The notes under the pieces: generated by a model
Told to the model about the DNA's origin: nothing
Databases searched by the model: none
Seen by the model: the letters and a program-made list of their open reading frames with translations, nothing else
Sequence record: OR757454.1
Length of the DNA: 64,000 bases
Direction: 5' to 3' (one strand)
Source of the DNA: Escherichia phage BYEP02
Shown: piece by piece, positions 19,584 through 53,828 of the stretch
Numbering within the stretch: the first letter of the stretch is position 1
How the letters are laid out: the number at the start of each line of letters is the position of its first letter
Translations under genes and position numbers: made by a program

Positions 19584-21992
19584 TTAATGTTATCAAAAGT
19601 AGTGGTGTTTCTCAGAGCTTTGACCCACAAAAAATTATTAAAGTTTTATCTTGGGCAGCTGAAGGAACATCTGTAGATCCTTATGAATTATATGAAAATA
19701 TTAAATCATATCTCCGTGATGGAATGACCACTGATGACATTCAGACTATTGTCATTAAGGCTGCTGCGAATTCTATTTCAGTTGAAGAGCCTGATTATCA
19801 ATACGTAGCTGCACGCTGTTTAATGTTTGCTCTTCGTAAACATGTTTACGGACAGTATGAACCACGTTCATTTATTGACCATATTTCTTACTGTGTAAAT
19901 GAAGGTAAATACGACCCTGAACTGTTGTCAAAATATTCAGCAGAAGAAATTACATTTTTAGAATCAAAAATTAAGCACGAGCGGGATATGGAATTTACTT
20001 ATTCCGGGGCGATGCAATTAAAAGAAAAATATCTAGTTAAAGATAAAACCACTGGTCAAATTTATGAAACTCCACAGTTTGCATTTATGTGCAATTAAAA
20101 GAAAAATATCTAGTTAAAGATAAAACCACTGGTCAAATTTATGAAACTCCACAGTTTGCATTTATGACTATTGGAATGGCATTGCATCAAGATGAACCTG
20201 TTGATAGATTAAAACATGTTATTCGTTTTTATGAAGCAGTATCTACTCGACAGATTTCATTGCCAACTCCTATTATGGCTGGTTGCCGTACTCCGACTCG
20301 ACAGTTTAGTTCATGCGTTGTTATTGAAGCTGGTGATTCATTGAAGTCAATTAATAAAGCTTCTGCTTCAATTGTTGAATATATTTCTAAACGCGCTGGA
20401 ATTGGAATTAACGTAGGTATGATTCGTGCTGAAGGTTCTAAGATTGGCATGGGTGAAGTACGCCATACTGGTGTTATTCCTTTTTGGAAACATTTTCAGA
20501 CTGCAGTTAAATCATGTTCACAGGGTGGAATTCGTGGCGGCGCTGCTACTGCTTATTATCCTATTTGGCATTTGGAAGTTGAAAATCTTCTCGTTTTGAA
20601 AAATAACAAAGGCGTAGAAGAAAACCGCATTCGTCATATGGATTATGGTGTTCAGCTGAATGATTTGATGATGGAACGATTCGGAAAGAACGATTACATT
20701 ACTTTGTTCAGTCCGCATGAAATGGGTGGCGAGCTTTATTATTCTTATTTTAAAGACCAAGACCGTTTCCGTGAATTATACGAAGCAGCAGAAAAAGACC
20801 CTAATATTCGTAAAAAGCGTATTAAAGCCCGTGAACTATTTGAATTGCTCATGACTGAACGTTCAGGAACAGCAAGGATTTATGTGCAGTTCATTGATAA
20901 TACGAATAACTATACTCCGTTTATTCGTGAAAAGGCACCTATTCGTCAGAGTAACTTGTGCTGTGAAATTGCTATTCCAACAAATGATGTGAATAGTCCT
21001 GATGCTGAAATTGGATTGTGTACTCTCTCTGCATTCGTACTGGATAATTTTGACTGGCAAGACCAAGATAAAATTAATGAATTGGCAGAAGTTCAAGTTC
21101 GTGCTCTTGATAATCTTTTGGATTACCAAGGATATCCAGTTCCTGAAGCAGAAAAAGCTAAAAAGCGTCGAAACCTTGGTGTAGGTGTTACTAACTATGC
21201 AGCTTGGCTGGCAAGTAACTTTGCTTCTTATGAAGATGCTAACGATTTAACACATGAACTATTTGAGAGATTACAGTATGGACTCATTAAAGCATCCATT
21301 AAGCTCGCCAAAGAAAAAGGACCTTGCGAATATTATTCAGACACTCGTTGGTCTCGAGGCGAATTACCTATCGACTGGTACAATAAAAAGATTGACCAAA
21401 TCGCAGCTCCAAAATACGTTTGTGACTGGTCGGCGCTGCGGGAAGACCTTAAGCTCTTTGGCATCCGTAATAGCACATTATCAGCACTTATGCCATGTGA
21501 GTCATCTTCCCAAGTTTCTAACAGTACAAACGGTATCGAGCCTCCACGTGGACCAGTCTCTGTTAAAGAGTCAAAAGAGGGTTCCTTTAATCAAGTCGTG
21601 CCCAATATTGAACATAACATAGACCTATATGATTATACATGGAAATTTCAAAAGAGGGCTCCTTTAATCAAGTCGTGCCCAATATTGAGCATAACATAGA
21701 CCTTTACGACTATACATGGAAATTAGCTAAGAAAGGTAATAAACCTTATCTTACGCAGGTAGCTATTATGCTGAAATGGGTTTGTCAATCAGCTTCGGCG
21801 AATACATACTATGACCCCCAAATCTTCCCTAAAGGCAAGGTTCCAATGTCAATAATGATTGATGACCTTTTGTATTTTTGGTATTTTGGCGGAAAAAATT
21901 TCTATTATCATAATACCCGCGATGGTTCTGGTACTGATGATTATGAAATAGAAACTCCTAAAGCTGAAGATTGTTCATCCTGTAAATTATGA
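19574..21992 (+). CDS. nrdA: ribonucleotide reductase large subunit NrdA, frame broken by two 77-bp duplications
   Basis: [22 protein letters not shown]...; 2419 nt minus 154 = 754 aa + stop as T4 NrdA. Confidence 0.9.
20013..20166. repeat. 77-bp direct tandem duplication inside nrdA
   Basis: copies 20013-20089 and 20090-20166; identical. Confidence 0.9.
21571..21724. repeat. 77-bp direct tandem duplication inside nrdA (divergent copies)
   Basis: copies 21571-21647 and 21648-21724; about 5 mismatches. Confidence 0.9.
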
Positions 21993-22043
21993 TATAATTT
22001 GACTCATGGACGAGTCACCAACTATTAACTAAGCGGAAAATTT

Positions 22044-23213
22044 ATGAGCACAGTTTTTAATACAAATCCAGTTGATGTTTTAAAAGAACCTATGTTCTTC
22101 GGTTCAGGTCTTGGTATTGCGCGTTATGATATTCAACGCCATAAAGTTTTTGAAGATTTGACTGAAAAGCAATTATCATTTTTCTGGCGTCCTGAAGAAG
22201 TAAACTTGATGATGGATGCTGCACAATTTAATAAACTTCCTCAGTATCAACAGAATATTTTTACTAATAACCTGAAGTATCAATCACTTTTGGATAGCAT
22301 TCAGGGTCGCGCGCCATCTGCTGTACTTATGTCATTAATTTCAGACCCAAGCCTTGATACATGGGTTGCTACGTGGACTTTTAGTGAAACTATTCACAGC
22401 CGTTCATATACACATATCATGCGAAATCTTTATACTGATCCATCGAAGGTGTTTGATGAGATTGTATTAGATGAAGCTATTATGAAACGTGCTGAGTCCA
22501 TTGGGCGATATTACGATGATGTCTTGGTTAAAACCCGTGAATGGGAAAACGCTAAAGAAGAATACGAAGGAATTTTGTCTGAAGGTTGGCGCAAAGATGA
22601 ACTTGGTAAAGTCGTTGAATACGCCAAACGAGAGCTAATGAAATCTCTTTACCTCTGTTTGCACGTTATTAATGCCTTAGAAGCTATTCGTTTTTATGTA
22701 TCTTTCGCATGTACCTTTAACTTCCATAAGAACATGGAAATCATGGAAGGTAATGCCAAGATTATGAAGTTCATTGCACGTGATGAGCAGCTTCACCTTA
22801 AAGGCACCCAATATATTATTCGTCAACTTCAATCCGGTACTGATGGCGATGAATGGGTTAAAATTGCTCAAGAGTGTGAACAAGAAGCAGTTGATATTTT
22901 CATGGAAGTTAACCGCCAAGAAAAAGATTGGGCAGTTCATTTATTTAAAGATGGCGATGTTCCTGGATTAAATACAAATAGCATGTGGAGCTTTATTGAT
23001 TACTTAACTGTATCTCGTATGAAACAGTGCGGTCTTCCATGCCCAATTACTGATGCTCCGGTTAAACATCCGTATCCTTGGATTCGTGAATATCTTAATT
23101 CTGATAATGTTCAATCTGCACCACAAGAAGTAGAACTGTCATCTTACCTTGTAGCACAGATTGATAATGATGTTGATGATAAAGTTATGATGAGTTTTAA
23201 AAAATATTTTTAA
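22044..23213 (+). CDS. nrdB: ribonucleotide reductase small subunit NrdB, intronless
   Basis: continuous 389-aa ORF MSTVFNTNPVDVLKEPMFFGSGLGIARYD... Confidence 0.9.
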   Translation: MSTVFNTNPVDVLKEPMFFGSGLGIARYDIQRHKVFEDLTEKQLSFFWRPEEVNLMMDAAQFNKLPQYQQNIFTNNLKYQSLLDSIQGRAPSAVLMSLISDPSLDTWVATWTFSETIHSRSYTHIMRNLYTDPSKVFDEIVLDEAIMKRAESIGRYYDDVLVKTREWENAKEEYEGILSEGWRKDELGKVVEYAKRELMKSLYLCLHVINALEAIRFYVSFACTFNFHKNMEIMEGNAKIMKFIARDEQLHLKGTQYIIRQLQSGTDGDEWVKIAQECEQEAVDIFMEVNRQEKDWAVHLFKDGDVPGLNTNSMWSFIDYLTVSRMKQCGLPCPITDAPVKHPYPWIREYLNSDNVQSAPQEVELSSYLVAQIDNDVDDKVMMSFKKYF

Positions 23214-23217
23214 GGAG

Positions 23218-23240
23218 TGGGCCGCAAGGCCCATTTTATT
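23218..23240 (+). terminator. terminator-like hairpin after nrdB
   Basis: TGGGCCGCAAGGCCCA followed by TTTTATT, immediately before denA start. Confidence 0.45.
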
Positions 23241-24828
<1,588 letters not shown>

Positions 24829-24831
24829 GCT

Positions 24832-24885
24832 GTTTACAAGTCCCTCGTGTTGTGTTATAGTAGTCTTACTGACATAACATGAGGA
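24832..24885 (+). promoter_or_regulatory. 54-bp early promoter cassette (copy A), upstream of alc
   Basis: GTTTAC-18 bp-TATAGT then conserved leader; identical to 38973-39026. Confidence 0.5.
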
Positions 24886-24892
24886 CTTTATG

Positions 24893-25396
24893 ATGGATTT
24901 ACAACTTATTACTACTGAAATGGTCGTTGAAGCATATGGTGATACTACAGATGGGATTTCTGTATTCAAAGGAAATCGTCGAGTTGGATATATCACCGAT
25001 CTTAAGAAAGATTTAGCTAAGCAAGTCAAGCGGAAAACGACCATTAAAGAATATCGAAATCGTCGTCTTGAGCAAGCCCGTGATATGCTTCCTGATGCGG
25101 TTGAAGAGATGAAAGTCTTTTTAGAAAATCAACTCGCTAAGTATGATTGTGATGTGTTCATTAATCAGACTCAACCTAATGTTCATATCAATAATTGTAA
25201 ATGCTACATCATCGTTAATCCTTTGACGGGAAAACATCGCCTTGGAATCAGTAATCCAAATCGTAGCGCATCAGATATGGCAGAAGATGTTGAGGCATGC
25301 TTTAAAATTTCTAAATCTCCTGCTGAACATCATATTTTAATTAACGGTCTTTCTCAAGACGATATTGTAGAGGTTATTAAAACTTTATGCAATTAA
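24893..25396 (+). CDS. alc: Alc, inhibitor of host transcription on cytosine DNA
   Basis: 167 aa from MDLQLITTEMVVEAYGD...; position rnlA-alc. Confidence 0.8.
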   Translation: MDLQLITTEMVVEAYGDTTDGISVFKGNRRVGYITDLKKDLAKQVKRKTTIKEYRNRRLEQARDMLPDAVEEMKVFLENQLAKYDCDVFINQTQPNVHINNCKCYIIVNPLTGKHRLGISNPNRSASDMAEDVEACFKISKSPAEHHILINGLSQDDIVEVIKTLCN

Positions 25397-25740
25397 GTAA
25401 TACGACAACAGGTTTGCTATTAATTGTAATTGCATTAGGCGGAACTTCTTTAATTTTAAAAAATAAAATTGAAAGATTAGAAACGTCTGTTGTAGAAATT
25501 ACAAAAACGGCCAATGAAAACGCCTTAGCATTAAATAATTTGCGAATTCAGTATAATTATATTGATGCGATGAATAATAAAAATCGTGAGGCAATTGCTG
25601 CTATTGAGCGTGAAAATGAAAAACTGCGCAAAGACGCAAAGAAGGCGGATGTGGTGGCTCATAAGCCAGGATTGGTTGAAAAACAAATCAACAACTCCTT
25701 CAACAAGTTCGCAGAAGACATCCAGGACCTTTCTAAATGA
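25387..25740 (+). CDS. i-spanin (Rz equivalent, pseT.3-like)
   Basis: 117 aa, N-terminal TM helix GLLLIVIALGGTSLIL then charged coiled-coil-like region; T4 spanins map to pseT.3/pseT.2. Confidence 0.55.
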   Translation: MQLSNTTTGLLLIVIALGGTSLILKNKIERLETSVVEITKTANENALALNNLRIQYNYIDAMNNKNREAIAAIERENEKLRKDAKKADVVAHKPGLVEKQINNSFNKFAEDIQDLSK

Positions 25741-26113
25741 TTAGACTATCAGCAGTAATATTATCTATTGGTCTTCTAGTTGGTTGTTCGACAAAGCCTC
25801 TAGAAGTAAAGAAAGAAACAGTTCATCCTAATTGGCCTGTTCTATTGGTCTTCTAGTTGGTTGTTCGACAAAGCCTCTAGAAGTAAAGAAAGAAACAGTT
25901 CATCCTAATTGGCCTGTACAAATAAAGTCATATGATGAAGCTAAACTATCTTGGCAAGTTAAAGTTATTGATGGTAAAGCTTGGGTCGGTATGCCATTTG
26001 AAGATTCCCAGGAATTTCGTATTTGGCTTAATGATGTAAAACGATATGTACATGACCAAAAAACTATGATATGTTATTATCGTCAAGAGCTAAAAGAGGA
26101 TAAATGCAAATGA
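25737..26113 (+). CDS. o-spanin lipoprotein (Rz1 equivalent, pseT.2-like), frame broken by 77-bp duplication (25764-25917)
   Basis: MIRLSAVILSIGLLVGC|STKP... signal peptide with lipobox LVGC; ATG overlaps stop of i-spanin. Confidence 0.5.
25764..25917. repeat. 77-bp direct tandem duplication inside o-spanin ORF
   Basis: copies 25764-25840 and 25841-25917; identical. Confidence 0.9.
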
Positions 26114-26334
26114 TTTCATGGCATCAATTTGAACATCTCAAAGGATTGATTTATGAATCCGAGATGGCTGCAATGATTTATGGACGCCAGATTCAACGGT
26201 TAGAATCTTTACCTCCAACTAATGATGTTTTATTAGCTCAATCTCGGGCTAATCTTAAAAATGAATACCAAAATAAGTGGGGTAAAGCATCTAAAGACCT
26301 GCATGATTATATTCAATCATTGGTTGAGAAATAA
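26104..26334 (+). CDS. hypothetical early protein (76 aa)
   Basis: ORF track. Confidence 0.4.
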   Translation: MQMISWHQFEHLKGLIYESEMAAMIYGRQIQRLESLPPTNDVLLAQSRANLKNEYQNKWGKASKDLHDYIQSLVEK

Positions 26335-26337
26335 TAA

Positions 26338-27562
<1,225 letters not shown>

Positions 27563-27563
<1 letters not shown>

Positions 27564-27760
27564 TGGCGTGGCATCATGAAACTTGGTCTATTGTTATTGT
27601 AAATAGTGGTTTAGTTGGTACTAGTAATGGGCAATTTTGTGTATTCACTAGTGAAATCAGAGCTTGGGAGGAATGCCTTAAATTAAGAGAAAAGAATCCT
27701 GATATTGAACTAACAGTAAAGAAAACTAAACTGCCTTTACCATGGAAAACTTATGAATAA
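27563..27760 (+). CDS. hypothetical small protein (65 aa)
   Basis: ORF track. Confidence 0.35.
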
Positions 27761-27953
27761 TATAGAAAAGATTTATCGTCTTTGTGATAAAATTGAAAAA
27801 GAAAAGAAATATCTATTTTGTTTATGGCCTATTGTTGACGGAAGAGTAGGCCTAGATGTTCTTGATTATGAAACAGAAGACAAAGTAGATGGTTCAACTT
27901 TTGATAACGCTTTGGATGTTATTGATTGGCTCGAAGAAAATTATGTGAGGTAA
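27753..27953 (+). CDS. hypothetical small protein (66 aa)
   Basis: ORF track. Confidence 0.35.
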   Translation: MNNIEKIYRLCDKIEKEKKYLFCLWPIVDGRVGLDVLDYETEDKVDGSTFDNALDVIDWLEENYVR

Positions 27954-28231
27954 ATATGTTTCCGACTTACTCTAAAATCGTAGAAGTAGTGTTTAGCCAA
28001 ATTATCGCTAATAATATGTTTGAAAAGCTTGATAACGCAGCCGAGCTTCGAATTCATGCTCAAGTGACTCATGTATTGAACGCTTTGCTTCCAGACCAGG
28101 TGGATTCTATTGCAATTACGCTGTATCCAGGTTCTGCTCATATTATTGTCGTATTCGGTCTTGATGCTGAGCTAGTCATCAAAGGCGATATTCGCTTTGA
28201 ATCACAGACATCAGAATTCAAAGCAATTTAA
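27926..28231 (+). CDS. hypothetical protein (101 aa)
   Basis: ORF track. Confidence 0.35.
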   Translation: MARRKLCEVNMFPTYSKIVEVVFSQIIANNMFEKLDNAAELRIHAQVTHVLNALLPDQVDSIAITLYPGSAHIIVVFGLDAELVIKGDIRFESQTSEFKAI

Positions 28232-28233
28232 TA

Positions 28234-28263
28234 GTTTACTTTACGGTAGAGTTGTGATATTAT
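28234..28263 (+). promoter_or_regulatory. early-type promoter (GTTTAC, 18 bp, TATTAT)
   Basis: GTTTACTTTACGGTAGAGTTGTGATATTAT upstream of ORF 28293. Confidence 0.35.
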
Positions 28264-28292
28264 AGCTCTACCAAACAAATGAGGAAATTGAA

Positions 28293-28606
28293 ATGCTAAG
28301 TGAAAAACCAATTACTGTTAAAGAATTCCAAGAAAAAGTTAAACTATTTGCTCAGGAATTGGTAAATAAGGTTTCTGAACGATTTCCAGAAACATCGGTT
28401 CGTGTCAAGAAAAAGTTAAACTATTTGCTCAGGAATTGGTAAATAAGGTTTCTGAACGATTTCCTGAAACATCGGTTCGTGTTATTACCGAAACTCCTCG
28501 TTCAGTATTAGTAATTGTGAATCCAGGCGATGGCGATCAAATAACACATCTCAAATTGGATTTTGATGGATTAGTTGAAGCACAAAGGGTGTATGGCGTA
28601 CTATGA
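28293..28606 (+). CDS. hypothetical small protein, frame broken by 77-bp duplication (28329-28482)
   Basis: ATG 28293 MLSEKPITVKEFQEKVKLFAQELVNKVSERFPETSVRV...; 78 codons after removing one repeat copy. Confidence 0.4.
28329..28482. repeat. 77-bp direct tandem duplication inside small ORF
   Basis: copies 28329-28405 and 28406-28482; 1 mismatch. Confidence 0.9.
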
Positions 28607-28941
28607 TGAATTTAACTGATATAATTGATAATTGTCTTGAAAATGATACTGGCGATCATAGAGCGCTTGACTCTGACACAGCACAGTTCATTAGAATAAC
28701 TTTAATGAATGATACTCTAGTGAATAGTATTCATCCTTCTGTATATGATGCTATTATTGTGACGAAGTATCCAGTTGAGCTTCACAAAAAGATGGTTGGT
28801 GCAATTTTTATTGATAAGAAAAACCGCTTTAAAGATGGGCAGAATATAATTAGTTCTGTTATTAAAAGTATAACTAAACTTCGTCACGAAATTTATCGTG
28901 TTGAAACTGCTAAATCTGCTTATCTGGTGATTATGAAATGA
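28603..28941 (+). CDS. hypothetical protein (112 aa)
   Basis: ORF track. Confidence 0.4.
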   Translation: MMNLTDIIDNCLENDTGDHRALDSDTAQFIRITLMNDTLVNSIHPSVYDAIIVTKYPVELHKKMVGAIFIDKKNRFKDGQNIISSVIKSITKLRHEIYRVETAKSAYLVIMK

Positions 28942-29519
28942 AAGCGAGTACAGTACTTCAAATTGCATATTTAGTATCACAAGAATCCAAATGTTGCTCC
29001 TGGAAGGTAGGAGCAGTAATTGAAAAGAATGGACGTATTATTTCTACCGGATATAATGGTTCACCTGCAGGTGGTGTGAACTGCTGTGATTATGCTGCTG
29101 AGCAAGGTTGGTTGCTGAATAAGCCTAAACATACTATCATTCAAGGTCATAAGCCTGAATGTGTATCGTTTGGTTCAACTGATCGTTTTGTTTTGGCGAA
29201 AGAACACCGTAGTGCTCACTCTGAATGGTCGTCTAAAAATGAAATTCATGCTGAACTAAATGCGATTTTGTTTGCTGCGCGAAATGGTTCTTCAATTGAA
29301 GGTGCTACTATGTATGTAACACTTTCTCCTTGCCCAGATTGTGCAAAAGCGATAGCTCAATCTGGAATTAAAAAGTTGGTTTATTGCGAAACATACGATA
29401 AAAATAAACCTGGCTGGGATGATATTCTGCGAAATGCGGGTATTGAAGTGTTTAATGTTCCTAAGAAAAACTTGAATAAGTTAAACTGGGAAAATATCAA
29501 CGAATTCTGTGGTGAATAA
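28938..29519 (+). CDS. cd: dCMP deaminase
   Basis: 193 aa with HAE and PCPDC zinc-binding motifs. Confidence 0.9.
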   Translation: MKASTVLQIAYLVSQESKCCSWKVGAVIEKNGRIISTGYNGSPAGGVNCCDYAAEQGWLLNKPKHTIIQGHKPECVSFGSTDRFVLAKEHRSAHSEWSSKNEIHAELNAILFAARNGSSIEGATMYVTLSPCPDCAKAIAQSGIKKLVYCETYDKNKPGWDDILRNAGIEVFNVPKKNLNKLNWENINEFCGE

Positions 29520-29755
29520 TGAAATTTCGTTTGGTACAGCTCACAGCAATTAGTTCTTATTCCAACGAGAATATTTCATTTGCTGTAGAGTATAAGAAGT
29601 ATTTTTTCTCTAAATGGAAGCAGTATTATAAGTCAAACTGGGTTTGTATTGATAGACCGCATAGTTGGAAATCTGATTTAGAAAAATGCCAAAAATTGCT
29701 TTCCACTCTTAAAGAACGTGGAACAACCCATATTAAAACTGTGATAGGTAAATAA
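29519..29755 (+). CDS. hypothetical protein (78 aa)
   Basis: ORF track. Confidence 0.4.
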   Translation: MKFRLVQLTAISSYSNENISFAVEYKKYFFSKWKQYYKSNWVCIDRPHSWKSDLEKCQKLLSTLKERGTTHIKTVIGK

Positions 29756-30064
29756 ATGAAACTGACGACTGAACAAAAAGTAGCAATTCGTGAAATTTTG
29801 AAAACTAAATTGTCCATGGGTATTTCAAACGTGGTTTTTGAAAAGTCTGATGGTACTATTCGTACCATGAAAGGCACTCGTGATGCAGACTTTATGCCAA
29901 CCATGCAAACTGGTAAATTGACTGAATCTACTCGGAAAGAATCTACTGATATGATTCCAGTATTTGATGTTGAGCTTGGTGCATGGCGAGGTTTTTCTAT
30001 TGACAAATTGATTTCCGTTAATGGTATGAAAGTTGAGCATTTGCTTCAATTTATTGGTAAATAA
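29756..30064 (+). CDS. hypothetical protein (102 aa)
   Basis: ORF track. Confidence 0.4.
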   Translation: MKLTTEQKVAIREILKTKLSMGISNVVFEKSDGTIRTMKGTRDADFMPTMQTGKLTESTRKESTDMIPVFDVELGAWRGFSIDKLISVNGMKVEHLLQFIGK

Positions 30065-30120
30065 ATGCTTTAAGAATTATTTGTTATTATTAATTTATCT
30101 GTTAACAAAAAGGAAAAACG

Positions 30121-30456
30121 ATGTCTGAAGTACAACAGCTACCAATTCGTGCTGTCGGTGAATATGTTATTTTAGTTTCTGAACCTGCACAAGCCGGTGA
30201 TGAAGAAGTTACAGAATCAGGACTTATTATCGGTAAACGCGTTCAAGGTGAAGTTCCTGAACTGTGTGTAATTCACTCTGTCGGTCCTGATGTTCCTGAA
30301 GGTTTTTGTGAAGTTGGTGATTTGACTTCTCTTCCAGTTGGTCAAATTCGAAATGTTCCGCATCCTTTTGTAGCTCTGGGTCTTAAGCAGCCAAAAGAAA
30401 TTAAACAAAAATTTGTTACCTGTCACTATAAAGCTATTCCGTGTCTTTATAAGTGA
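30121..30456 (+). CDS. 31: gp31 co-chaperonin (GroES analogue)
   Basis: 111 aa [30 protein letters not shown]... Confidence 0.9.
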
Positions 30457-30603
30457 TATAAATAATAATATGAATTGGGTGTCGGAATAATAAGTTAACC
30501 GAACAATTCTATGTGGTAGTCTACAACTGAGAGATCTGTCGAAAGAAGATGAAATTCAGAAGAACGTGACTACCGAGTTTTAATCTCTAACGAGAATTTT
30601 TAA

Positions 30604-30852
30604 ATGATTAAACAATTACAACACGCTCTTGAACTGCAACGAAACGCATGGAATAATGGTCACGAAAACTATGGCGCATCTATTGATGTTGAAGCCGAAG
30701 CTCTTGAAATCCTGCGTTATTTCAAACATCTGAATCCTGCTCAAACTGCATTAGCTGCTGAGCTTCAGGAAAAAGATGAACTTAAATATGCTAAGCCTTT
30801 GGCTTCTGCTGCACGAAAAGCAGTTCGTCACTTTGTGGTAACACTGAAGTAA
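30604..30852 (+). CDS. rIII: RIII lysis inhibition accessory protein
   Basis: 82 aa MIKQLQHALELQRNAWNNGHENYGAS... Confidence 0.85.
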   Translation: MIKQLQHALELQRNAWNNGHENYGASIDVEAEALEILRYFKHLNPAQTALAAELQEKDELKYAKPLASAARKAVRHFVVTLK

Positions 30853-31098
30853 TTTACTGGAGATTCACTGCCTTAGTGTGAGCTAAAATCGAGGAGCCGT
30901 CGAACTGTCTGATTAATGATTTGCGAATCATTATAGTTTTAAGACCCCGGCAGTTTTACGGTGTACCTCTTGAATGTGAATGATGACGGGTTTATGGTTA
31001 TCCTGGTCGTTAAATATCCAAAAACCTATGTTCCCCTTGAGGGCCTTGCGCAGGCAATGCCAATAAGTCCTGCATTTTCATTTAAAAGAGAATTTATA

Positions 31099-31275
31099 AT
31101 GGCAAAACAAGCTAAAGCAAAGAAAGCAGTTGAAAAGAAAGTTGGTGATTCTAAACGCGCTGGTTACAAGCGTGGGTCGAACTCTCGTATCAATCAAACT
31201 GTTGAGAAGATCATGCGCCGAGCACGTGCGGTTCTTCGAGATGATGCTTCTCGTTTTGGTAAGCAGAAAGCATAA
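31099..31275 (+). CDS. hypothetical small basic protein (58 aa)
   Basis: ATG 31099 MAKQAKAKKAVEKK... with AAGAGA SD; followed by terminator hairpin. Confidence 0.45.
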   Translation: MAKQAKAKKAVEKKVGDSKRAGYKRGSNSRINQTVEKIMRRARAVLRDDASRFGKQKA

Positions 31276-31280
31276 GTTGA

Positions 31281-31305
31281 GGACTCCTTCGGGAGTCCTT
31301 TTTTA
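31281..31305 (+). terminator. rho-independent terminator
   Basis: GGACTCCTTCGGGAGTCC followed by TTTTTTATTTT. Confidence 0.55.
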
Positions 31306-31327
31306 TTTTCCAAAGATTGCATAAAGT

Positions 31328-31358
31328 TGTTTACAGTATGGTTCCTTTGTGATAGTAT
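31328..31358 (+). promoter_or_regulatory. early-type promoter-like element (GTTTAC ... TAGTAT)
   Basis: GTTTACAGTATGGTTCCTTTGTGATAGTAT upstream of ORF 31386. Confidence 0.3.
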
Positions 31359-31385
31359 TATCTTACACAAACAAAGGAGAATAAA

Positions 31386-31718
31386 ATGAAAACGATTAAT
31401 CTGAACGCTACAGTTAAAACTAAATGCTTCAATGGTAAATATGATGAAACTATGTGGTTCTTAATGGCAGTTGAAGGTGATATTATTGAAGTAGAAACAA
31501 CAGAAGGTATGGGAACAGATTTCACCTTTACAATTCAAGTTCATAATTTCTTTACTGGTTGGATTTATGAATTGAATACAGTAATCGTTGGAAAAATTGA
31601 ACAAAATGAATTAGGCGAATGGTATTATGTTACAGCTCGCCAACGTGCCGAACGCTTAATTAAGAAGATGAAAAAAGTTGGTAAACTTGACATGCAGCAT
31701 TGGAAAGTAGTAAAATAA
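31386..31718 (+). CDS. hypothetical protein (110 aa)
   Basis: ORF track. Confidence 0.4.
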   Translation: MKTINLNATVKTKCFNGKYDETMWFLMAVEGDIIEVETTEGMGTDFTFTIQVHNFFTGWIYELNTVIVGKIEQNELGEWYYVTARQRAERLIKKMKKVGKLDMQHWKVVK

Positions 31719-31720
31719 TT

Positions 31721-31749
31721 GTTTACTTTGGTACAGGATATGATATTAT
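31721..31749 (+). promoter_or_regulatory. early-type promoter (GTTTAC, 17 bp, TATTAT)
   Basis: GTTTACTTTGGTACAGGATATGATATTAT upstream of ORF 31786. Confidence 0.35.
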
Positions 31750-31785
31750 ATACCTGTACCGCAATTAAACATCTTGGAGAATAAA

Positions 31786-32228
31786 ATGAACTACATTAAC
31801 TTTGAACGTAAATATGTTTCTAATGGTATTGCAGGTTCTATTGATACTATTTGCCTTTGGAAACATCAAAAATTAACTTTGAACGTAAATATGTTTCTAA
31901 TGGTATTGCAGGTTCTATTGATACCATCTGCCTTTGGAAACATCAAAATGGATCAGTATGCGAAATTGAACAGTATATGACTCCTAACTACGTTTATATG
32001 CGATTTGAAAATGGCATCACGGTTTCAATCACAATGGAAGGTTCCAACTTCAAAATTGCTTTGGATGATGATTTTCGTCAACGCGATTTAGGGACTCATC
32101 CTTGCTGGAATGGCGTTAATCGCAAGCTTCTGGTTAAAACTTGGATTCGTCATATTCTGAGTAACAGAGCTAAACCTGAGCATCTTGAAGCAATCTTTGA
32201 TGTAGTTCTTAACGAATTTGATATTTAA
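31786..32228 (+). CDS. hypothetical protein, frame broken by 77-bp duplication (31795-31948)
   Basis: ATG 31786 MNYINFERKYVSNGIAGSIDTICLWKHQ...; pieces 31774.. and 31851..32228. Confidence 0.4.
31795..31948. repeat. 77-bp direct tandem duplication inside small ORF
   Basis: copies 31795-31871 and 31872-31948; 2 mismatches. Confidence 0.9.
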
Positions 32229-32269
32229 AATAAAAATGAGGGGCTTCGGCCCCTATTGAGGAAAATATT

Positions 32270-41422: not shown

Positions 41423-43272
41423 TTAATTAACTCCAGTCGCATCAAATACACCAGGAGCAGTTGTGCTTGTGACAGGTGTCATATTATGAACGACAGTATT
41501 TTTCTTAATAACATTATTAGTATTATTGATTGAAGGAGATGCTTGCTGAACAGGAGCTTGCTGTGCTTTGTTCTTTTCAATAACCTGGACCTGTTTCGCT
41601 TCTGGCGATTTAGCAGAAGTTTCAGGTTTGGCATTAGGCTGATTTTTCTTGAGCTCTTGATAAGTAGCATCAATTTTAGAAAATCTAGCAGCAAGTTCTT
41701 TTTTAACTGCCGGTGAATTGTTTAAATCCGGGTCATCCATCCGTTTTTTAAGGTCTTCATAGGCAGATTCAACAGATTTAACCGTTGAGTCTTTACTCAT
41801 ATCAGCTGAATCAGCATATTTTTCAAAACGAATCATCGCGGCACGTGCTTCATTAGCCTTCATTAAAGCATTTTTTCTTTCTTCAGGTGAAAGCTGCTTT
41901 AATTTTTCTTCTTCTGCTGCACGTTCTTCGTCGGTAGTTAGTGCTTCTTTATTATCAACACCGCGAATCCAATTAGATGCACGAGTTTTCCAATTAGCAA
42001 TTTTATCTAATCCTTTTGCTATCGGACCAAGGTCTCCGTTCATTCGTTTATCTTGATAATTTGCAACTTTTTCTTGGTCTTCTTTATTGAGAGATGCTCC
42101 AGTAGAATTTTGGAAATTTTCCAATGCTCTTCCTTCTACTTCATCAGCAGTATCCTTCATACCAGGAATGACTCGAAGAATTGCTGCAGATAATTTAGCC
42201 ATACCTAATTGAATAAGCTCTCCTAAATTAAAAAGAACACTTCCAAGTCCTTCTATGATAGCTGTTGTCAATCCACCCCAATCTCCCGCTTCCCAAAGTT
42301 GTTTAATTTTATCAATAGAATCAAAGATGCTCTGTAATAAAGGACCCCACCACCCCAATCTCCCGCTTCCCAAAGTTGTTTAATTTTATCAATAGAATCA
42401 AAGATGCTCTGTAATAAAGGACCCCATGTTCCGGTTTCGCTAGAGAATTTAGTAAAATCAGTACTATATAAATCCCAGGCTTTTGAAAATTTATCTGACC
42501 AGTATTTAAAATGAACCATCAACAGGTCTATTCCAACAACAACAGCCAATATCATTGCAGTCATTTTAGCAGCTTCAATAGCAGCACTAACGGTATACTT
42601 AAATAGCATGCTTGATATTTTATCAGTAATTGAAATAGATTTCTTAAATCCAAAATCAACTGTCTTTGTTAATTTATCTAAAGCTTGAGATAATTTTAAG
42701 TTAAATGCTTCTTTTTTCTGTTTTTCTTCTGGTGATTCTTGTTTGGGTTCAACTGGTTGAGGGGTAGGGAAAAAATCAGCGTCAGGATCATTATTAACTG
42801 CTTCGGGAGCTGGTAATAAAGGACCCACAGATTCGGCAGTATCATCCTCAACGACTTTAACAGGAATAGCGCTTTCAACCGTGGCTAAACTAGTTCCCGT
42901 CTGTTGAATTCCAGCTGTCTGAATTTTTTGCTCTAGTAAACTTGTTAATTTATCTAATTTGCTTCCGAGTGATTCACCGATTTCTTTATTAATATTGTTG
43001 CCAATTTCGACAGTTTCAGCAATTAACTCAGAACCAGCAGTAGTATCACTCACTGCGCTTTCTACGTTATCAATTGCTCCAATTATTTCATTCGATTTTT
43101 CTTCGACAGTTTGAGCTATTAATTCAGAAGCAGCTTGAGCATCATCCAATTTCGTAGAAATGTCATTAAGCCCAGATAAAGTATTAGAAGCGGATTTAGC
43201 CGCTTCCTGTGTTGGTTTATTATCTGAAATAACTTTTCTACGCATCGTTTGCATTTCTTGTGGCTTTTTCAT
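41423..43272 (-). CDS. 29: gp29 baseplate hub / tail length determinator, frame broken by 77-bp duplication (42273-42426)
   Basis: 1850 nt minus 77 = 590 aa + stop as T4 gp29. Confidence 0.8.
42273..42426. repeat. 77-bp direct tandem duplication inside gene 29
   Basis: copies 42273-42349 and 42350-42426; identical. Confidence 0.9.
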
Positions 43273-43802: not shown

Positions 43803-44999
43803 TTTTAACCTTAACTGGGTCTATTGTTTCCAGTTTCGTTGCATTAGTGAACATATATAGATGAGTTACTGAATTATTATTGGATAATTCATGGATAACT
43901 TCATCAACGTAAAATTCTGTTTTAAATTGGTTTTTACTATCATTAAAAATAATTTTAACGATAATTCATGGATAACTTCATCAACGTAAAATTCTGTTTT
44001 AAATTGGTTTTTACTATCATTAAAAATAATTTTAACACCAGGAGTCAAGTTAAAATTACCGACAGTAGAACATTTAGCATAGCCATCATATTGCGCCATA
44101 GTTTGAAGACGAATAGCTTCTTCATATCCATTCCTATAAGTCATTTCAGAATAAGCACCTGACCTTGACACTACAATAGAGTTTTCTCCCTTTCCTGTAG
44201 TAATCATTGGCAATGAAGAATCTAAAAATGAATGAGCATAGATAGTAGCGTTTTTCATTGGGTCACGTTTGTGAGGATTCGATTTAGTCAACCAAACGAA
44301 ATCATATGCTAATGGATATTTTAATTCTTGGATGAATTGACCTATTAAAGATGGCTCACCGACAATCATTGGATACGGTTCTTGATTTATCATCATATCA
44401 TAGTCCATCATGTTAACTCCCATGATGTCTTGCCACACAAATACAAATTTGTCACTTCCTACAGCTAGAGCAACTTCTCTAACATACGACAAATAGTTTT
44501 CAAATGTGCTAGTCCATGGAATATCAGGAACATAAGCATTTATAGCATTTATTGCTGGAGTTAATAATGTACGGTCTTGATAAATGACGCCAAGCATTTC
44601 TTTTATAGATTCACCTGCATCAGGGAAAAATGGTCTACCAAATTTAAGATTTTCTATAGAATGAATAGTTCCCAATTCAATAGCAATGATGTTATCGCCT
44701 TTTGAATCGACTGACACGGAAAAATGCTTACATCCATAAATTCGTGTTTTAACATTATTAATATCATTTGCATTAGCTACAGAAATCTGAATTATTTCAT
44801 TTCCATCCATTTTTGTATGGATGTTTTTAGAATCATAAAACTGCAGCATTCCTTCATTTCGGCCATAAAGAGAATCCCGCATAGTTAATGTGGTAATAGT
44901 AGCAGCTAATTCAACAAATCTATTATTACTCCAAGCGTCGTAGCTATCAAATAATTTAACGCTGAGATTTGGATATCCGGGGCGTTGCAACATACTCAT
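43747..44999 (-). CDS. 27: gp27 baseplate hub subunit, frame broken by 77-bp duplication (43883-44036)
   Basis: [21 protein letters not shown]...; after removing one copy the frame ends at TAA 43747-43749 giving 391 aa as T4 gp27. Confidence 0.8.
43883..44036. repeat. 77-bp direct tandem duplication inside gene 27
   Basis: copies 43883-43959 and 43960-44036; identical. Confidence 0.9.
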
Positions 45000-47303: not shown

Positions 47304-47527
47304 TGAGATATAGCATTGATGATGCTTTTAATTATGAAGAAGAATTTGAAACGGAAATTCAATTCTTAATGAAAAAGCATAATCTTAAGCGTCAGGATAT
47401 TCGTATCCTGGCCGATCACCCGTGTGGTGAAGATGTCCTTTATATTAAAGGAAAATTTGCCGGATATCTTGATGAATATTTTTATTCTAAAGATATGGGC
47501 ATTGATATGCATATGAGAGTTGTATAA
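47303..47527 (+). CDS. hypothetical small protein (74 aa)
   Basis: ORF track; 3' end and downstream late promoter lie inside duplicated unit 47462-47615. Confidence 0.45.
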   Translation: MRYSIDDAFNYEEEFETEIQFLMKKHNLKRQDIRILADHPCGEDVLYIKGKFAGYLDEYFYSKDMGIDMHMRVV

Positions 47528-47615
47528 ATAGATATATAGGATATCTTGATGAATATTTTTATTCTAAAGATATGGGCATTGATATGCATATGAGAGTTGT
47601 ATAAATAGATATATA
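47462..47615. repeat. 77-bp direct tandem duplication spanning small ORF 3' end and a TATAAATA late-promoter motif
   Basis: copies 47462-47538 and 47539-47615; identical. Confidence 0.9.
47523..47530 (+). promoter_or_regulatory. late promoter motif TATAAATA (duplicated copy at 47600-47607)
   Basis: upstream of ORF 47633. Confidence 0.4.
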
Positions 47616-47855: not shown

Positions 47856-48163
47856 TTAAAAGCTTTCTTCTACTTCATCGTCTGAATCTTCTAATTCAGC
47901 TCTTTTTCCTGCCAAAGCATCTCTCACAGAGATGTCATCAGTATCTTTTAATTCAGTTTCTTTGACTCTTTTCTTGTAATAAGCTTCAAGTTCTTCTAAA
48001 CCTTCTAATGTTTGACAAGAGGCAATTTTACCCATAAATTCATCAATAGAAGCTTCATAAAGAAATTGTTTAAATTACCTTCTAATGTTTGACAAGAGGC
48101 AATTTTACCCATAAATTCATCAATAGAAGCTTCATAAAGAAATTGTTTAAATCCTAGTAACAT
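47856..48163 (-). CDS. UvsW.1-like small protein, frame broken by 77-bp duplication (48000-48153)
   Basis: MLLGFKQFLYEASIDEFMGKIASCQTLEGL...; 76 aa after removing one repeat copy. Confidence 0.5.
48000..48153. repeat. 77-bp direct tandem duplication inside uvsW.1-like ORF
   Basis: copies 48000-48076 and 48077-48153; 1 mismatch. Confidence 0.9.
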
Positions 48164-48188: not shown

Positions 48189-49854
48189 TTATAAATTAAC
48201 TGTTTTCATTACGTAATTAAATTTTTCATCTGCGTAGCGCTGAATACGATCAATGCCGTGTTTTAAAAGATAGTTCAAATGAACATATTTCTTTTTCGTA
48301 TTAGCAGATTTTGGCTTAACACCACAATCATCTATGAGGTCCCAGACTGTTGCGACTGTTTTAGAACCATGCTTACGTAATACACGACCGATTGTTTGTA
48401 ATACAATGATTTTTGATTTAACGCCGTGCGCTATGTCTTAGAACCATGCTTACGTAATACACGACCGATTGTTTGTAATACAATGATTTTTGATTTAACA
48501 CCGTGCGCTAAAACAACATGATGCAGATTTTTAACTGAAATACCAGTAGAAAATACACCATAACTCGCTACTATAATTATTCCTTTACCATTTTCAGCTA
48601 AGGTTTTCATTACGTTGCGGGTTTCGGTATCAACTTCCCCTGATACGTAATAAACTTTATCGTATTCATTTTTAATTAAATCGAAAATAGCTTTACCATG
48701 CGATACATGTTTAAACATGACAAAAGCGTTTTCATCTTTTTGTCATTTTTAATTAAATCGAAAATAGCTTTACCATGCGATACATGTTTAAACATGACAA
48801 AAGCGTTTTCATCTTTTTGTGCAAGCTTAATAGCTAATTTAGCGATCCATTTATTTCTTTTACTGAGCCCAGTAATAATTTTTATTTCTTCTTGGTAAGT
48901 TTTTCCCTTTAATTTAGTAGTGAACTCATCGGGATAGCGAAGAAAAATACTATTAATTTTTAACTCAGTTACTTGTCCATCTTCCATTAATTTAGAGGTC
49001 GTTACTGGCTTAAATATTTCACCAAACATTCCAACATACTGCATGATATTGGCTTTGCCGTCACGTAATGAACCAGACAAACCAAATTTAAACATGCAGT
49101 TATTTAAACCTGATATGATAGATGAAATACTTTTTCCTGTAGCAAGATGGCATTCATCATTCATCATCATTCCAAACTGTGAGAACCATTCTTTCGGTTG
49201 TTTAACTACAGTTTGCCATGTACCAACGACGACTGGTGCATCATTTTTATATTTATCATCTTTTGATGCTCCGCCACCAATTTTCTTTATCATTGCATGA
49301 CTGAATAAACGATAGTCAACAAAGTCATCAGCCATCTGAGTTGTCAGAGCAGTTGTTGGAACAATGATAAGAATTTTACCTTCATAATTTTCCAAATAAT
49401 ATCGCGCAAGCAAAGCTTGAATTAAAGATTTACCAGCAGATGTTGGAAGATTAAGAATTCTACGACGATTAACTAATCCTTCGAACACTGCATCTTTTTG
49501 ATACCAGTGCGGTTCAATTCTTTTATTTCCTGAATAGATTTCTAATTTAGAAAGCCATTCATCAAAATCTTTTCTTGATAATTCTTCTTTTTCGTTAATT
49601 TGTGGGTCAATCCAGGCTTTATAGCCAAAGTTATCACAGAACTTTTTAATTTGCCCGACTAAGCCGAATGGAAGAAGACGATTATAATCTAAAAGACGGA
49701 TTCGTCCATCCCAGTGGCCATATCTGTACTTCGGATTAAAACGATACCCATCAGCTTCAAAGCTAAAGAAATCACGGAGTTCATGAAATGTACTTTCTTC
49801 GCAATCAATTCTCACGTGACTAAAATCATAAAAATGTACTTTAATGTCAGTCAT
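48189..49854 (-). CDS. uvsW: UvsW DNA/RNA helicase, frame broken by two 77-bp duplications
   Basis: MTDIKVHFYDFSHVRIDCEESTFHEL...; 1666 nt minus 154 = 503 aa + stop. Confidence 0.85.
48361..48514. repeat. 77-bp direct tandem duplication inside uvsW (divergent copies)
   Basis: copies 48361-48437 and 48438-48514; about 4 mismatches. Confidence 0.85.
48666..48819. repeat. 77-bp direct tandem duplication inside uvsW
   Basis: copies 48666-48742 and 48743-48819; identical. Confidence 0.9.
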
Positions 49855-49904: not shown

Positions 49905-50662
49905 ATGATAGATAAAGATTATATTGCAGAGCTGAAGGCTCTTGATGATAATAAAGAAGCTAAGGCTAAATTAGCTGAATATGCTGAACAGTTTGGTATA
50001 AAGGTCAAAAAGAATAAATCTTTTGATAATATCGTTATTGATATTGAAGAAGCCCTCCAGAAGCTCGCTAGTGAACCTATGCCAGAGACTGATGGGTTAT
50101 CTATTAAAGACTTAATTGATGCTGCTGATGCCGCAGAGGGATTAAAATATGACGATGAAGAAGTCAATCCAGAAGCAGCACTTCTGATTGATTCTCCGGT
50201 TAAATCTGACATTAAAATTGAAGTAGTAGAAATGGATAAAATTCCCGAAAATACCGATGTTTTGATTGAAGATACTCCTTTTGTTGAAGAAAAATTTGAA
50301 CAGGCTGTAGCTGAGATTATTGAATCTGAAAAGCCGTCTGTATTTACTCTTCCGGAAAACTTTAGTCCGAATCTTCAGCTGATTGGAAAAAATCCAGGAT
50401 TCTGCACTGTTCCTTGGTGGATTTATCAATGGATAGCTGAAACTCCGGATTGGAAATCTCACCCAACTAGTTTTGAACATGCACTGTTCCTTGGTGGATT
50501 TATCAATGGATAGCTGAAACTCCGGATTGGAAATCTCACCCAACAAGTTTTGAGCATGCGTCAGCACACCAAACTTTATTTAGCTTAATTTATTACATTA
50601 ACCGTGACGGATCAGTTTTAATTCGTGAAACACGCAATTCTTCTTTCGTAACATTAAAATAA
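49905..50662 (+). CDS. inh: Inh, inhibitor of prohead protease, frame broken by 77-bp duplication (50403-50556)
   Basis: after removing one copy frame ends at TAA 50660-50662 = 226 aa. Confidence 0.7.
50403..50556. repeat. 77-bp direct tandem duplication inside inh
   Basis: copies 50403-50479 and 50480-50556; 2 mismatches. Confidence 0.9.
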
Positions 50663-50671: not shown

Positions 50672-52167
50672 ATGACTTTTACAGTTGATATAACTCCTAA
50701 AACACCTACTGGAGTTATAGATGAGACTAAGCAGTTTACTGCTACGCCCAGTGGTCAAACTGGAGATGGACCTATTACCTATGCTTGGACTGTTGATGAT
50801 GCACCGCAGGAAGAAACGTCTGCAACTTTTAGTTATGTACTAAAAGGTCCTGCTGGACAAAAGACTATTAAGGTAGTTGCAACAAATCCAGTTCCTGATT
50901 CTGAAGCTGAAACAGCTGAAATTAGTACAACTATCACAGTTCAAAATAAGACACAAACAACTACTTTAGCTGTAACTCCTGGTAGCCCTGATGCTGGAGT
51001 GATTGGAACTCCAATTGAATTTACCGCTGCCTTAGCTTCACAGCCATCAGGTGCAAACGCTACATATCAATGGTACGTTGACGGTTCTCCTGTGGGCGAA
51101 GCAACTGGCACTACATTCAATTACACTCCTGACGCAAGCGGAGTTAAAACAATTAAGTGTGTAGCTCAAGTAACCGCGACAGATTATGATGCAAAGGAAG
51201 TTACTTCTAATGAAGTGTCACTGACTGTTAATAAGAAAACACAGACAACTACGTTAGCCGTAACTCCTGCTAATCCTCCAGCAGGAGTTATTGGAACCCC
51301 AGTTCAATTTACTGCTACCTTGGCTTCACAGCCACCAGGAGCGTCTGCTACGTATCAGTGGTATGTTGACGGTTCTCTGGTCGATGGAGAAACTACTACT
51401 ACATTTAACTATACTCCTACCACAGTTGGAGCTAAAACAGTTAAGTGTGTAGCGCAAGTAACTGCAGAAAATTACAATGAAAAGGAAGTTACTTCTAATG
51501 AAGTATCATTGACTGTTAATAAGAAAACAATGAATCCACGGGTTACATTGACTCCTCCTTCTATTAACGTTCAGCAAGATGCTTCGGCTACATTTACTGC
51601 TAATGTTACGGATGCTCCAGAAGAAGCACAAATCGAATATTCATGGAAGAAAGATTCTTCTCCAGTAGAAGGGTCAACTAATGTATACACTGTTGATACA
51701 TCATCTATTGGAAGTCAAACTATTGAAGTTACTGCAACTATTACTGCAACTGATTACGATAGCAAAACTATTACAGCAGAAGGTCAAGTTCAGGTAACTG
51801 ATAAAGTTGCTCCGGAACCAGAAGGTGAATTACCTTATGTTCATCCTCTTCCACATCGCACTTCAGCTTATATCTTGATAAAGTTGCTCCAGAACCAGAA
51901 GGTGAATTGCCTTATGTTCATCCTCTTCCACATCGCACTTCAGCTTACATCTGGTGCGGTTGGTGGGTTATGGATGAAATCCAAAAAATGACCGAAGAAG
52001 GTAAAGATTGGAAAACTGAAGATCCAGATAGTAAGTACTACTTGCATCGTTACACTCTTCAGAAGATGATGAAAGACTATCCAGAAGTTGATGTCCAAGA
52101 ATCGCGTAATGGATACATCATTCATAAAACTGCTTTAGAAACTGGTATCATCTATACCTATCCATAA
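50672..52167 (+). CDS. hoc: Hoc outer capsid decoration protein with four tandem Ig-like domains, frame broken by 77-bp duplication (51799-51952)
   Basis: MTFTVDITPKTPTGVIDETKQFTATPSG...; ORF pieces 50672..51991 and 51907..52167 join to 472 aa after removing one repeat copy. Confidence 0.85.
50946..51527 (+). repeat. intragenic tandem repeat of about 290 bp encoding Ig-like domains 2 and 3 of Hoc
   Basis: two in-frame units starting near 50946 and 51231, roughly 85 percent identical by eye (TQTTTLAVTPGSPDAGVIGTP... vs TQTTTLAVTPANPPAGVIGTP...). Confidence 0.7.
51799..51952. repeat. 77-bp direct tandem duplication inside hoc
   Basis: copies 51799-51875 and 51876-51952; 3 mismatches. Confidence 0.9.
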
Positions 52168-52256: not shown

Positions 52257-52472
52257 ATGAGATTGATTATGAGAACTGAGGTTGTGGTGTTTACTCTTCA
52301 TGAGTCTGGAAAGTCATTCATTGAAATTGCTCGTGAATTAAACTTACAGGCAAAAGAAGTGGCTGTATTATGGGCTCGAGCTATGACTGCTAAGAATAAA
52401 TTTGAAACTCGAGAAAAAGTTGTCTATAGAAAAAGACATATTAATAAAAAGGTGAAAAATGGAACAGTATGA
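52257..52472 (+). CDS. hypothetical protein (71 aa)
   Basis: ORF track. Confidence 0.35.
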   Translation: MRLIMRTEVVVFTLHESGKSFIEIARELNLQAKEVAVLWARAMTAKNKFETREKVVYRKRHINKKVKNGTV

Positions 52473-52737
52473 TCTTTATGAAAATGAATCTTTTGCTAAT
52501 CAATTACGCGAAAAAGCATTCAAAAGTAAACAGTTTAAGCTAGAGTGTTTTATTAAAGATTTTTCGGAACTTGCTAATAAAGCAGCTGAACAAGGTAAAA
52601 CACATTTTAATTATTATTGTATTGCTCGTGATAAATTGATTACTGAAGAAATTGGTGATTGGCTGAGAAAAGAAGGATTCAGCTTTAAAGTCAATAGTGA
52701 TCAGCGTGATGGTGATTGGTTAGAAATTACATTTTGA
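52459..52737 (+). CDS. hypothetical protein (92 aa)
   Basis: ORF track. Confidence 0.4.
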   Translation: MEQYDLYENESFANQLREKAFKSKQFKLECFIKDFSELANKAAEQGKTHFNYYCIARDKLITEEIGDWLRKEGFSFKVNSDQRDGDWLEITF

Positions 52738-52746
52738 GGATTAATT

Positions 52747-53828
52747 ATGTTTAAAAAGTATAGCAGTCTTGAAAATCATTACAATTCTAAATTCATTGAA
52801 AAACTTTATAGTTTAGGATTGACTGGCGGCGAATGGGTAGCTCGTGAAAAGATTCATGGTACAAATTTCTCGTTGATTATTGAGCGCGATAAAGCAACTT
52901 GTGCTAAACGTACTGGACCGATTCTTCCTGCTGAAGATTTCTTTGGGTATTGATTATTGAGCGTGATAAAGTAACTTGCGCTAAACGTACTGGACCAATT
53001 CTTCCTGCTGAAGATTTCTTCGGTTATGAAATTATTTTAAAGAATTACGAAGATTCTATTAAAGCTGTCCAAGAAATTATGGAAACTTCAGCTGTTGTGA
53101 CTTATCAAGTTTTTGGCGAATTCGCTGGACCTGGCATTCAGAAGAATGTCGATTATGGCGATAAAGATTTTTATGTATTTGACATTATTGTTACTACCGA
53201 AAGTGGTGATGTAACTTATGTTGATGATTACATGATGGAATCGTTTTGTAATTCATTTGGGTTTAAAATCGCTCCACTTTTGGGTCGTGGTAAATTTGAA
53301 GATCTTATTAAACTTCCAAATGATTTGGATTCTGTTGTTCCGTCTTATAATTTTACCGTAGATAATGCAGGTTTAATTGACGCTAACAAATGTGTTTGGA
53401 AAGCTGAAGCCAAAGGCGAAGTATTTACCGCTGAAGGATATGTATTGAAACCTTGTTATCCTTCTTGGCTGCCTAATCGCAATCGTGTAGCCATCAAATG
53501 CAAGAATTCTAAATTTAGTGAAAAGAAAAAGTCTGATAAGCCTATTAAAGCTAAAGTTGAACTGTCAGAAGCTGATAACAAATTGGTGGGGATTTTAGCT
53601 TGTTACGTTACACTAAACCGAGTAAATAACGTTATTTCTAAAATTGGCGAAATTGGTCCAAAAGATTTTGGAAAGGTGATGGGACTAACTGTTCAAGATA
53701 TTTTGGAAGAAACTTCTCGTGAAGGTATTACTCTAACTCAAGCGGATAATCCTTCTTTGATTAAAAAGGAATTAGTTAAAATGGTACAAGATGTACTTCG
53801 TCCGGCTTGGATTGAATTGGTAAGTTAA
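52747..53828 (+). CDS. rnlB: RNA ligase 2, frame broken by 77-bp duplication (52873-53026)
   Basis: [42 protein letters not shown]... KxHGxN motif; 334 aa after removing one repeat copy. Confidence 0.9.
52873..53026. repeat. 77-bp direct tandem duplication inside rnlB (most divergent pair)
   Basis: copies 52873-52949 and 52950-53026; about 6 mismatches. Confidence 0.9.

Follow-up and report, generated by a model that had tools for sequence, protein, structure and literature searches.

77-nt tandem duplications in the sequence record of Escherichia phage BYEP02 as probable marks of a stitch between two T4-like haplotypes

Three kinds of known assembly product come closest to the repeats described here. 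Untrimmed de Bruijn overlaps, as left by SPAdes-type concatenation or at the ends of circular contigs, are identical when they are true overlaps; correct reference-guided scaffolding leaves no duplication; and strain-chimeric consensus contigs switch silently between haplotypes. Here, we analyzed 31 tandem duplications of 77 nt in a 64,000-nt stretch of the record of Escherichia phage BYEP02 (OR757454.1), hereafter the window. We conclude that these duplications are an assembly-stitching artefact and not a genomic feature. Very probably, they join two haplotypes, the second copy being of the type of Escherichia phage slur03. We found no specific description of a 77-bp overlap artefact in a search of the literature.

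The window belongs to a Tequatrovirus (T4-like coliphage). Its bases 1-20000 are 99.2% identical to the Escherichia phages slur03, slur08 and slur14, with the next genome at 94%; bases 20000-40000 are 98.4% identical to slur03 (LN881728), and over bases 40000-64000 several phages reach about 97-98% identity. Among GenBank phage matches, no phage record was 100% identical to the window. The slur03, slur08 and slur14 records (LN881728, LN881733 and LN881736) gave the same match statistics and share a length of 167,467 bp; they are effectively one genome permuted to different start positions.

The 77-nt duplications and the genes they interrupt

We scanned the whole window for tandem repeats of all periods between 15 and 999 nt, using a cut-off of at least 90% identity. 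This returned 31 tandem duplications between positions 4325 and 63465, each with a period of exactly 77 nt, and none with any other period; Tandem Repeats Finder (TRF) returned the identical set of 31 arrays. A 77-nt tandem repeat cannot originate by chance, and the single length seen in 31/31 repeats matches the k of an assembler. The copy pairs were then compared without gaps, and three ambiguous registers were settled against slur03 and slur04. Seventeen pairs are exact and 14 are not, with a total of 27 substitutions and one 2-nt indel (Table 1). The original prediction, made from the letters of the window, had put the identical pairs at about 18, close to the exact count, and had correctly described a spread from 0 to about 6 mismatches. 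Its counts for the pairs at 52873, 21571, 51799, 31795, 50403 and 6478 were right; the pair that it gave as 48361-48514 with about 4 mismatches starts at 48357 and has 2. The range it named, 21571-53026, covers the more divergent pairs only, and the phenomenon extends well beyond it on both sides. Its argument that an exact k-mer overlap cannot explain mismatched pairs is borne out by the 14 non-identical ones.

Next, we split the window into pieces at the 31 joins and aligned each of them to slur03. Neighbouring pieces share exactly 77 nt in slur03 coordinates (79 nt at the indel pair, 17614), and slur03 is therefore single-copy at all 31 sites. Most sites (26/31) lie wholly within protein-coding genes; of the others, four overlap the end of a gene and one is largely intergenic. 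Since 77 is not a multiple of 3, an insertion of this length shifts the reading frame. We tested 22 slur03 proteins encoded across a join; in the window, 20 of them are truncated, with best stop-free frames covering 44-97%, and these include gp37, gp35, gp34, gp32, nrdA, alt, gp29, gp27, uvsW, gp24, gp20 and gp18. The exceptions are uvsY.-1, which is unaffected, and hoc, which is naturally shorter in the window's strain. When copy 1 was removed at every join, all 20 truncated proteins returned to 100% coverage. Removal of copy 2 instead rescued all except frd, whose C-terminus is shortened by a natural 2-nt variant. With all these genes broken, such a phage could not be viable.

These data leave genuine tandem duplications that have since diverged by mutation a vanishingly small chance. 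In favour of such an origin there is only the fact that the record contains the repeats. Against it stand the uniform 77-nt length in 31/31 repeats and the frameshifts in 20 genes, many of them essential (gp18, gp20, gp24, gp27, gp29, gp32, gp34, gp37 and nrdA), together with the single-copy state of all 31 sites in slur03 and differences that are one-sided, synonymous and match the alleles of other phages. The duplication at the rnlB join was found in none of seven aligned genomes (slur03, slur04, SG1, slur07, JEP6, T4_ev240 and RB32). Thus, none of the marks of a biological tandem duplication was seen, namely compatibility with the genes, variable length and occurrence in independent genomes. 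Junction 40-mers had no match in viral, metagenome or genome contigs, a 4-kb stretch of the window had none among E. coli complete genomes or plasmids, and two frameshifted proteins had none in a gene-position index. That the duplications themselves are biological, whatever their later history, we regard as next to impossible.

Allele content of the two copies and their flanks

The original prediction had raised the question of which copy matches related T4-like genomes. Copy 2 shows no difference from slur03 in any of the 31 pairs (2,389 nt), and copy 1 holds all 27 substitutions and the indel as departures from slur03. This one-sidedness in 14/14 inexact pairs has p = 6e-5 under a coin flip. 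Synonymous third-position changes account for 24/26 coding substitutions, the other two being conservative non-synonymous ones; one further substitution is intergenic. The copy-1 alleles occur in slur04, vB_Eco_BGP or ESh33 in 17/27 cases, and at least 20/27 are carried by other T4-like phages overall. The six at 52873 form the single haplotype of four other phages (Table 1), and the last-base allele at 48000 is that of slur04. The indel at 17614, AAA versus AAAAA, likewise follows known genomes, copy 1 (TATAAATGA) reading as slur04 and copy 2 (TATAAAAATGA) as slur03. Judged by these allele matches, the copy differences are natural polymorphisms, neither errors nor new mutations. Mutation after duplication, which the original prediction had also considered, is rejected together with sequencing error, as the differences are not random with respect to copy, codon position or known alleles.

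Instead, two haplotypes of each locus stand side by side, and each runs on into its own flank. Copy 1 continues the haplotype of the left piece, and copy 2 equals slur03 together with the right flank, which supports the earlier suggestion of joins between strain-variant contigs. Since copy 2 is always slur03 and the copy-1 variants are natural, the two copies appear to be one locus taken from two genomes. The uneven divergence of the pairs agrees with this. Window-wide, 60% of 77-mers are free of differences from slur03, and in the tails of the pieces 37% are; the exact pairs amount to 55%, a share as for a randomly placed 77-mer, so the variable divergence of the pairs reflects the local divergence between the two genomes.

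The same polarity is seen in the pieces between joins, which are identical to slur03 at their start and about 2% divergent towards their end. Neither this course from slur03-type to divergent sequence nor the constant identity of copy 2 had been mentioned in the original prediction. Differences from slur03 begin 85 nt or more from the start of a piece. To the right of a join, the nearest difference lies at a median distance of 610 nt, versus 127 nt for random positions (p = 3.5e-4); to the left, the distance is 96 versus 105 nt, like random positions. We further counted alleles at 734 slur03-private sites, where slur04, vB_Eco_BGP and ESh33 agree on another base. The ratio of slur03 to other alleles was 37 to 1 in the first 300 nt of pieces, 25 to 13 in the last 300 nt and 191 to 137 over whole pieces. 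In total, the slur03-identical heads make up about 25 kb with zero differences, long stretches that include private alleles of a public genome. Divergence between slur03 and slur04 is 5.6% in the heads, with a further 10% unalignable, and 2.9% in the tails. The heads thus fall where slur03 diverges more from slur04, which argues that they are slur03-lineage sequence and not merely conserved. In the 358 nt after the 52873 repeat, 41-46 sites separate slur03 from the phages that have the copy-1 haplotype, and the window has no difference from slur03 over the 1367 nt that follow copy 2. At three joins, the slur03-type insert is at most the 77-mer plus 7-9 nt.

We considered whether the pairs could have been exact k-mer duplicates at first, with alleles in one copy flipped later by read mapping or consensus polishing in a polymorphic population. 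The mismatches do fall at naturally polymorphic, mostly synonymous sites, and each copy is in phase with its adjacent flank. However, random or majority flips would hit either copy, and all 28 differences set copy 1 against slur03; the six alleles at 52873 are one coherent haplotype, the two sides of the indel pair differ in length (77 nt left, 79 nt right), and the polarity reaches hundreds of nt past the repeat. We judge this explanation improbable. Consensus calling over a mixed population, as the original prediction had put it, may have been a contributing step, but alone it yields neither the strict one-sidedness nor the indel case.

For the pair at 6478-6631, the terminator stem had been described as weakened in copy 2. 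This is true of the + strand only: the G-to-A change, which is slur03's own allele, breaks a pair on the non-transcribed strand, and on the transcribed (-) strand a G-U wobble takes the place of a G-C pair. The - strand hairpin still forms, at -16.9 kcal/mol for copy 2 compared to -19.3 kcal/mol for copy 1.

Sources of the sequence and candidate mechanisms

In the mechanism that we propose, the window would be a computational stitch of two T4-like coliphage sources. The first would consist of de novo contigs, presumably k = 77 de Bruijn contigs, of a strain without a match in the searched collections and about 2% divergent in patches. The second would be a sequence identical to slur03/slur08/slur14. 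At the end of a piece from the first source, slur03-type sequence would resume at the homologue of the first base of the last 77 nt, and the 77-nt locus would be written twice, in the sample version and then in the slur03 version; the switch back from slur03-type to sample-type sequence would be seamless. Such an off-by-one-anchor splice rule (k = 77) would leave identical copies where both genomes agree over 77 nt (17 sites) and inter-strain polymorphisms elsewhere (14 sites). In the indel pair, the overlap is 77 nt on the left piece but spans 79 nt of slur03; the anchor thus appears to be the final 77 nt of the piece on the left, placed by alignment and not by exact k-mer identity. As to where the slur03-type sequence came from, we lean slightly towards a reference or backbone provided in silico; its assembly from slur03-type DNA in the same sample is less probable, although a serious option.

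The non-slur03 source differs from slur03 in gene content. It lacks 518 bp, comprising one small gene, and a further 155 bp; both deletions lie in divergent piece tails, which indicates that this source has a gene content of its own. The deletions are found at window positions ~28295 and ~30978, the 518-bp one removing the slur03 coding sequence 38317-38844 (a small hypothetical gene) and the 155-bp one being intergenic. The window's hoc is shorter than slur03 hoc by 576 bp (two immunoglobulin (Ig)-like repeats) and has the same length as slur04 hoc, and this is natural domain-number variation. Within hoc, a 288-nt tandem repeat at 50951-51529 (2 copies, about 80% identity) corresponds to Ig-like domains. 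The best GenBank phage matches to the divergent stretches reach only 98.0-98.9% identity. Neither of two sample-specific 44-mers had a match in viral contigs; for one of the two, metagenome and genome contigs were searched as well, again without a match. On sequence comparison, slur02, slur04 and slur07 were rejected as the non-slur03 source, which is a real, distinct phage sharing the tail-fibre module of slur03.

Window positions 1-4401 carry asiA (anti-sigma factor), small hypothetical genes, holin t, a short tail-fibre gene and distal gp37. This stretch differs from slur03 by one base over 4.4 kb, and slur04 is barely alignable to it. All of it may be reference or backbone sequence, which makes host-range inference from the record unsafe. 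At 6100-6340 (gp37/gp36), 16 differences from slur03 fall within 44 nt, together with a 3-nt insertion and in surroundings nearly identical to slur03; this patch looks like a small imported recombination tract.

Several observations weigh against a splice onto a supplied slur03 backbone, a scenario in which the software and the source of the slur03-type sequence are both putative. First, a difference from slur03 lies at the base directly before copy 1 (offset 78 from the piece end) in 6/31 joins, where ~0.7 would be expected (p = 8.6e-5). These joins are 21571, 33274, 37839, 48357, 52873 and 63312, four of the six having non-identical 77-mers. Second, the join 77-mers are about 2.3-fold depleted in differences from slur03. 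Third, the pieces 7603-7840 and 37916-38153 are each 238 nt long, 100% slur03 and bounded by exact joins on both sides; they resemble graph edges more than contigs placed by a scaffolder, and their equal length may be a coincidence. The offset-78 spike is a de Bruijn-vertex signature, which could mean that slur03-type k-mers were in the same graph, and together with the depleted 77-mers and the 238-nt pieces it suggests that pieces end at k = 77 graph vertices. In addition, with slur04 as a proxy, there is no rise in divergence just after the joins; the idea that pieces end where divergence from slur03 climbs sharply fits 52873 and was rejected as a general rule. Finally, the piece tails were tested for freedom from slur03-private alleles, and they keep blocks of them. 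The second strain would then itself be a slur03-related mosaic, or contigs mix strains; the alternation of slur03-type and other sequence is in part natural, or in part due to strain mixing inside contigs.

As a rival route, a slur03-type phage and a sibling strain may have been sequenced together, for example from a mixed plaque or slurry, and assembled in one k = 77 graph, with overlaps left untrimmed when a path of edges or contigs was written out. The mismatches would then have entered through merged non-identical vertices or through separate, haplotype-biased polishing of contigs. A k of 77 is standard in SPAdes, which was also the assembler used for slur03. That phage came from a sample of slurry in which eight T4-like isolates, belonging to three types, were obtained, so that a mixed lysate stays plausible. 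The spike at exactly offset 78 with conserved 77-mers, the two pieces of only 238 nt, the seamless switches between slur03-type and other sequence within pieces, and heads that are 100.00% slur03, as if the same phage stock had been sequenced, all agree with this route. On the other hand, adjacent de Bruijn edges share their k-mer exactly, yet the copies of 14/31 pairs are not the same, with an indel or as many as 6 substitutions between them. Closure of slur03-versus-other bubbles at k = 77 needs the last variant at offset 78, and only 2/17 exact joins fit, on which ground a pure graph explanation was rejected. No genomic repeat of at least 55 nt, which could create breakpoints or vertices, was found in the region. 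Moreover, strand symmetry predicts neither that copy 2 equals slur03 nor the slur03-to-divergent polarity of the pieces. Because a strand-symmetric graph does not predict the one-sidedness, few joins fit bubble closures and repeats are absent, we favour an external slur03 backbone, and we regard the mixed-strain graph path as possible but rather unlikely. To a similar, tentative degree, slur03 and a recombinant sibling with the same tail fibres may have coexisted in the sample, in which case the switches within pieces would be recombination tracts and only the 77-nt duplicates artefactual.

Individual joins, consequences and known artefacts

The 31 joins are listed one by one in Table 1.

Table 1 Joins in the window, by position. 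All consist of 77 + 77 nt except the one in frd.
Position	Location	Copy 1 compared with copy 2
4325-4478	inside gp37 (distal tail fibre)	1 substitution: copy 1 GAT, slur03 GAC, synonymous; copy 2 as slur03
6478-6631	gp36/gp35 intergenic terminator	1 substitution; copy 1 stem perfect; copy 2 as slur03, G-U wobble on - strand
7526-7679	gp35	exact
7764-7917	gp35/gp34 boundary	exact
9117-9270	gp34	1 substitution, synonymous; copy-1 allele also in ESh33
10150-10303	gp34	exact
14691-14844	gp32	exact
15229-15382	3' end of gp32	exact
17614-17769	frd	2-nt indel; copy 1 17614-17690 (77 nt), copy 2 17691-17769 (79 nt)
20013-20166	nrdA	exact
21571-21724	nrdA	5 substitutions, all synonymous third-position; copy 2 as slur03; three copy-1 alleles also in vB_Eco_BGP
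25764-25917		exact
28329-28482		1 substitution, synonymous; allele in slur04 and ESh33
31795-31948		2 substitutions, both synonymous; alleles in slur04 and ESh33
33274-33427		1 substitution
36846-36999	alt	exact; divergent sequence returns 10 nt past copy 2
37839-37992	alt	exact
38077-38230	alt	exact
42273-42426	gp29	exact
43883-44036	gp27	exact
47462-47615	end of uvsY.-1	exact
48000-48153	uvsW.1	1 substitution, last base of copy 1: T (slur04) versus C in copy 2 (slur03)
48357-48510	uvsW	2 substitutions, both synonymous; slur03-type stretch is copy 2 plus at most 7 nt
48666-48819	uvsW	exact
50403-50556	inh	2 substitutions
51799-51952	hoc	3 substitutions, all synonymous
52873-53026	rnlB	6 substitutions; copy 1 haplotype as SG1, JEP6, T4_ev240 and RB32
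54240-54393	gp24	exact
59889-60042	gp20 (portal)	1 substitution
62751-62904	gp18 (sheath)	exact
63312-63465	gp18	exact; variant at base directly before copy 1

The significance of these joins is limited to data hygiene. The 31 extra 77-nt segments in the record are spurious and put at least 20 genes out of frame, and as much as about 25 kb of the 64 kb may derive from slur03 and not from the sampled phage. It is therefore misleading for gene calls, for average nucleotide identity (ANI) and taxonomy, for recombination analyses and for host range as read from tail-fibre genes. A second copy that equals a backbone genome is a simple diagnostic, and it suggests a repair by deletion of one copy per join.

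We compared the joins with the three kinds of assembly product named at the outset and identified no tool with exactly this splice behaviour. With untrimmed de Bruijn overlaps they share a constant, standard k (77), a strictly tandem arrangement, the lack of a counterpart in relatives, the restoration of genes when one copy is removed and a variant at offset k+1 in several joins. They differ in that 14/31 pairs are not identical, one copy is always slur03 and the arrangement is directional. With reference-guided scaffolding or gap imputation they share a mosaic in which novel sequence alternates with stretches that match a single public genome at 100.00% identity, the presence of reference-type stretches in hypervariable regions, and the alignment of a contig-end anchor in which mismatches and an indel are tolerated. 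Unlike in correct scaffolding of this kind, the anchor is here written twice, on one side of each splice only. With strain-chimeric consensus contigs they share haplotype switches between close T4-like genomes and alleles that are all natural; in contrast to the silent switches of such contigs, the 31 returns to slur03-type sequence are each marked by a 77-nt duplicate.

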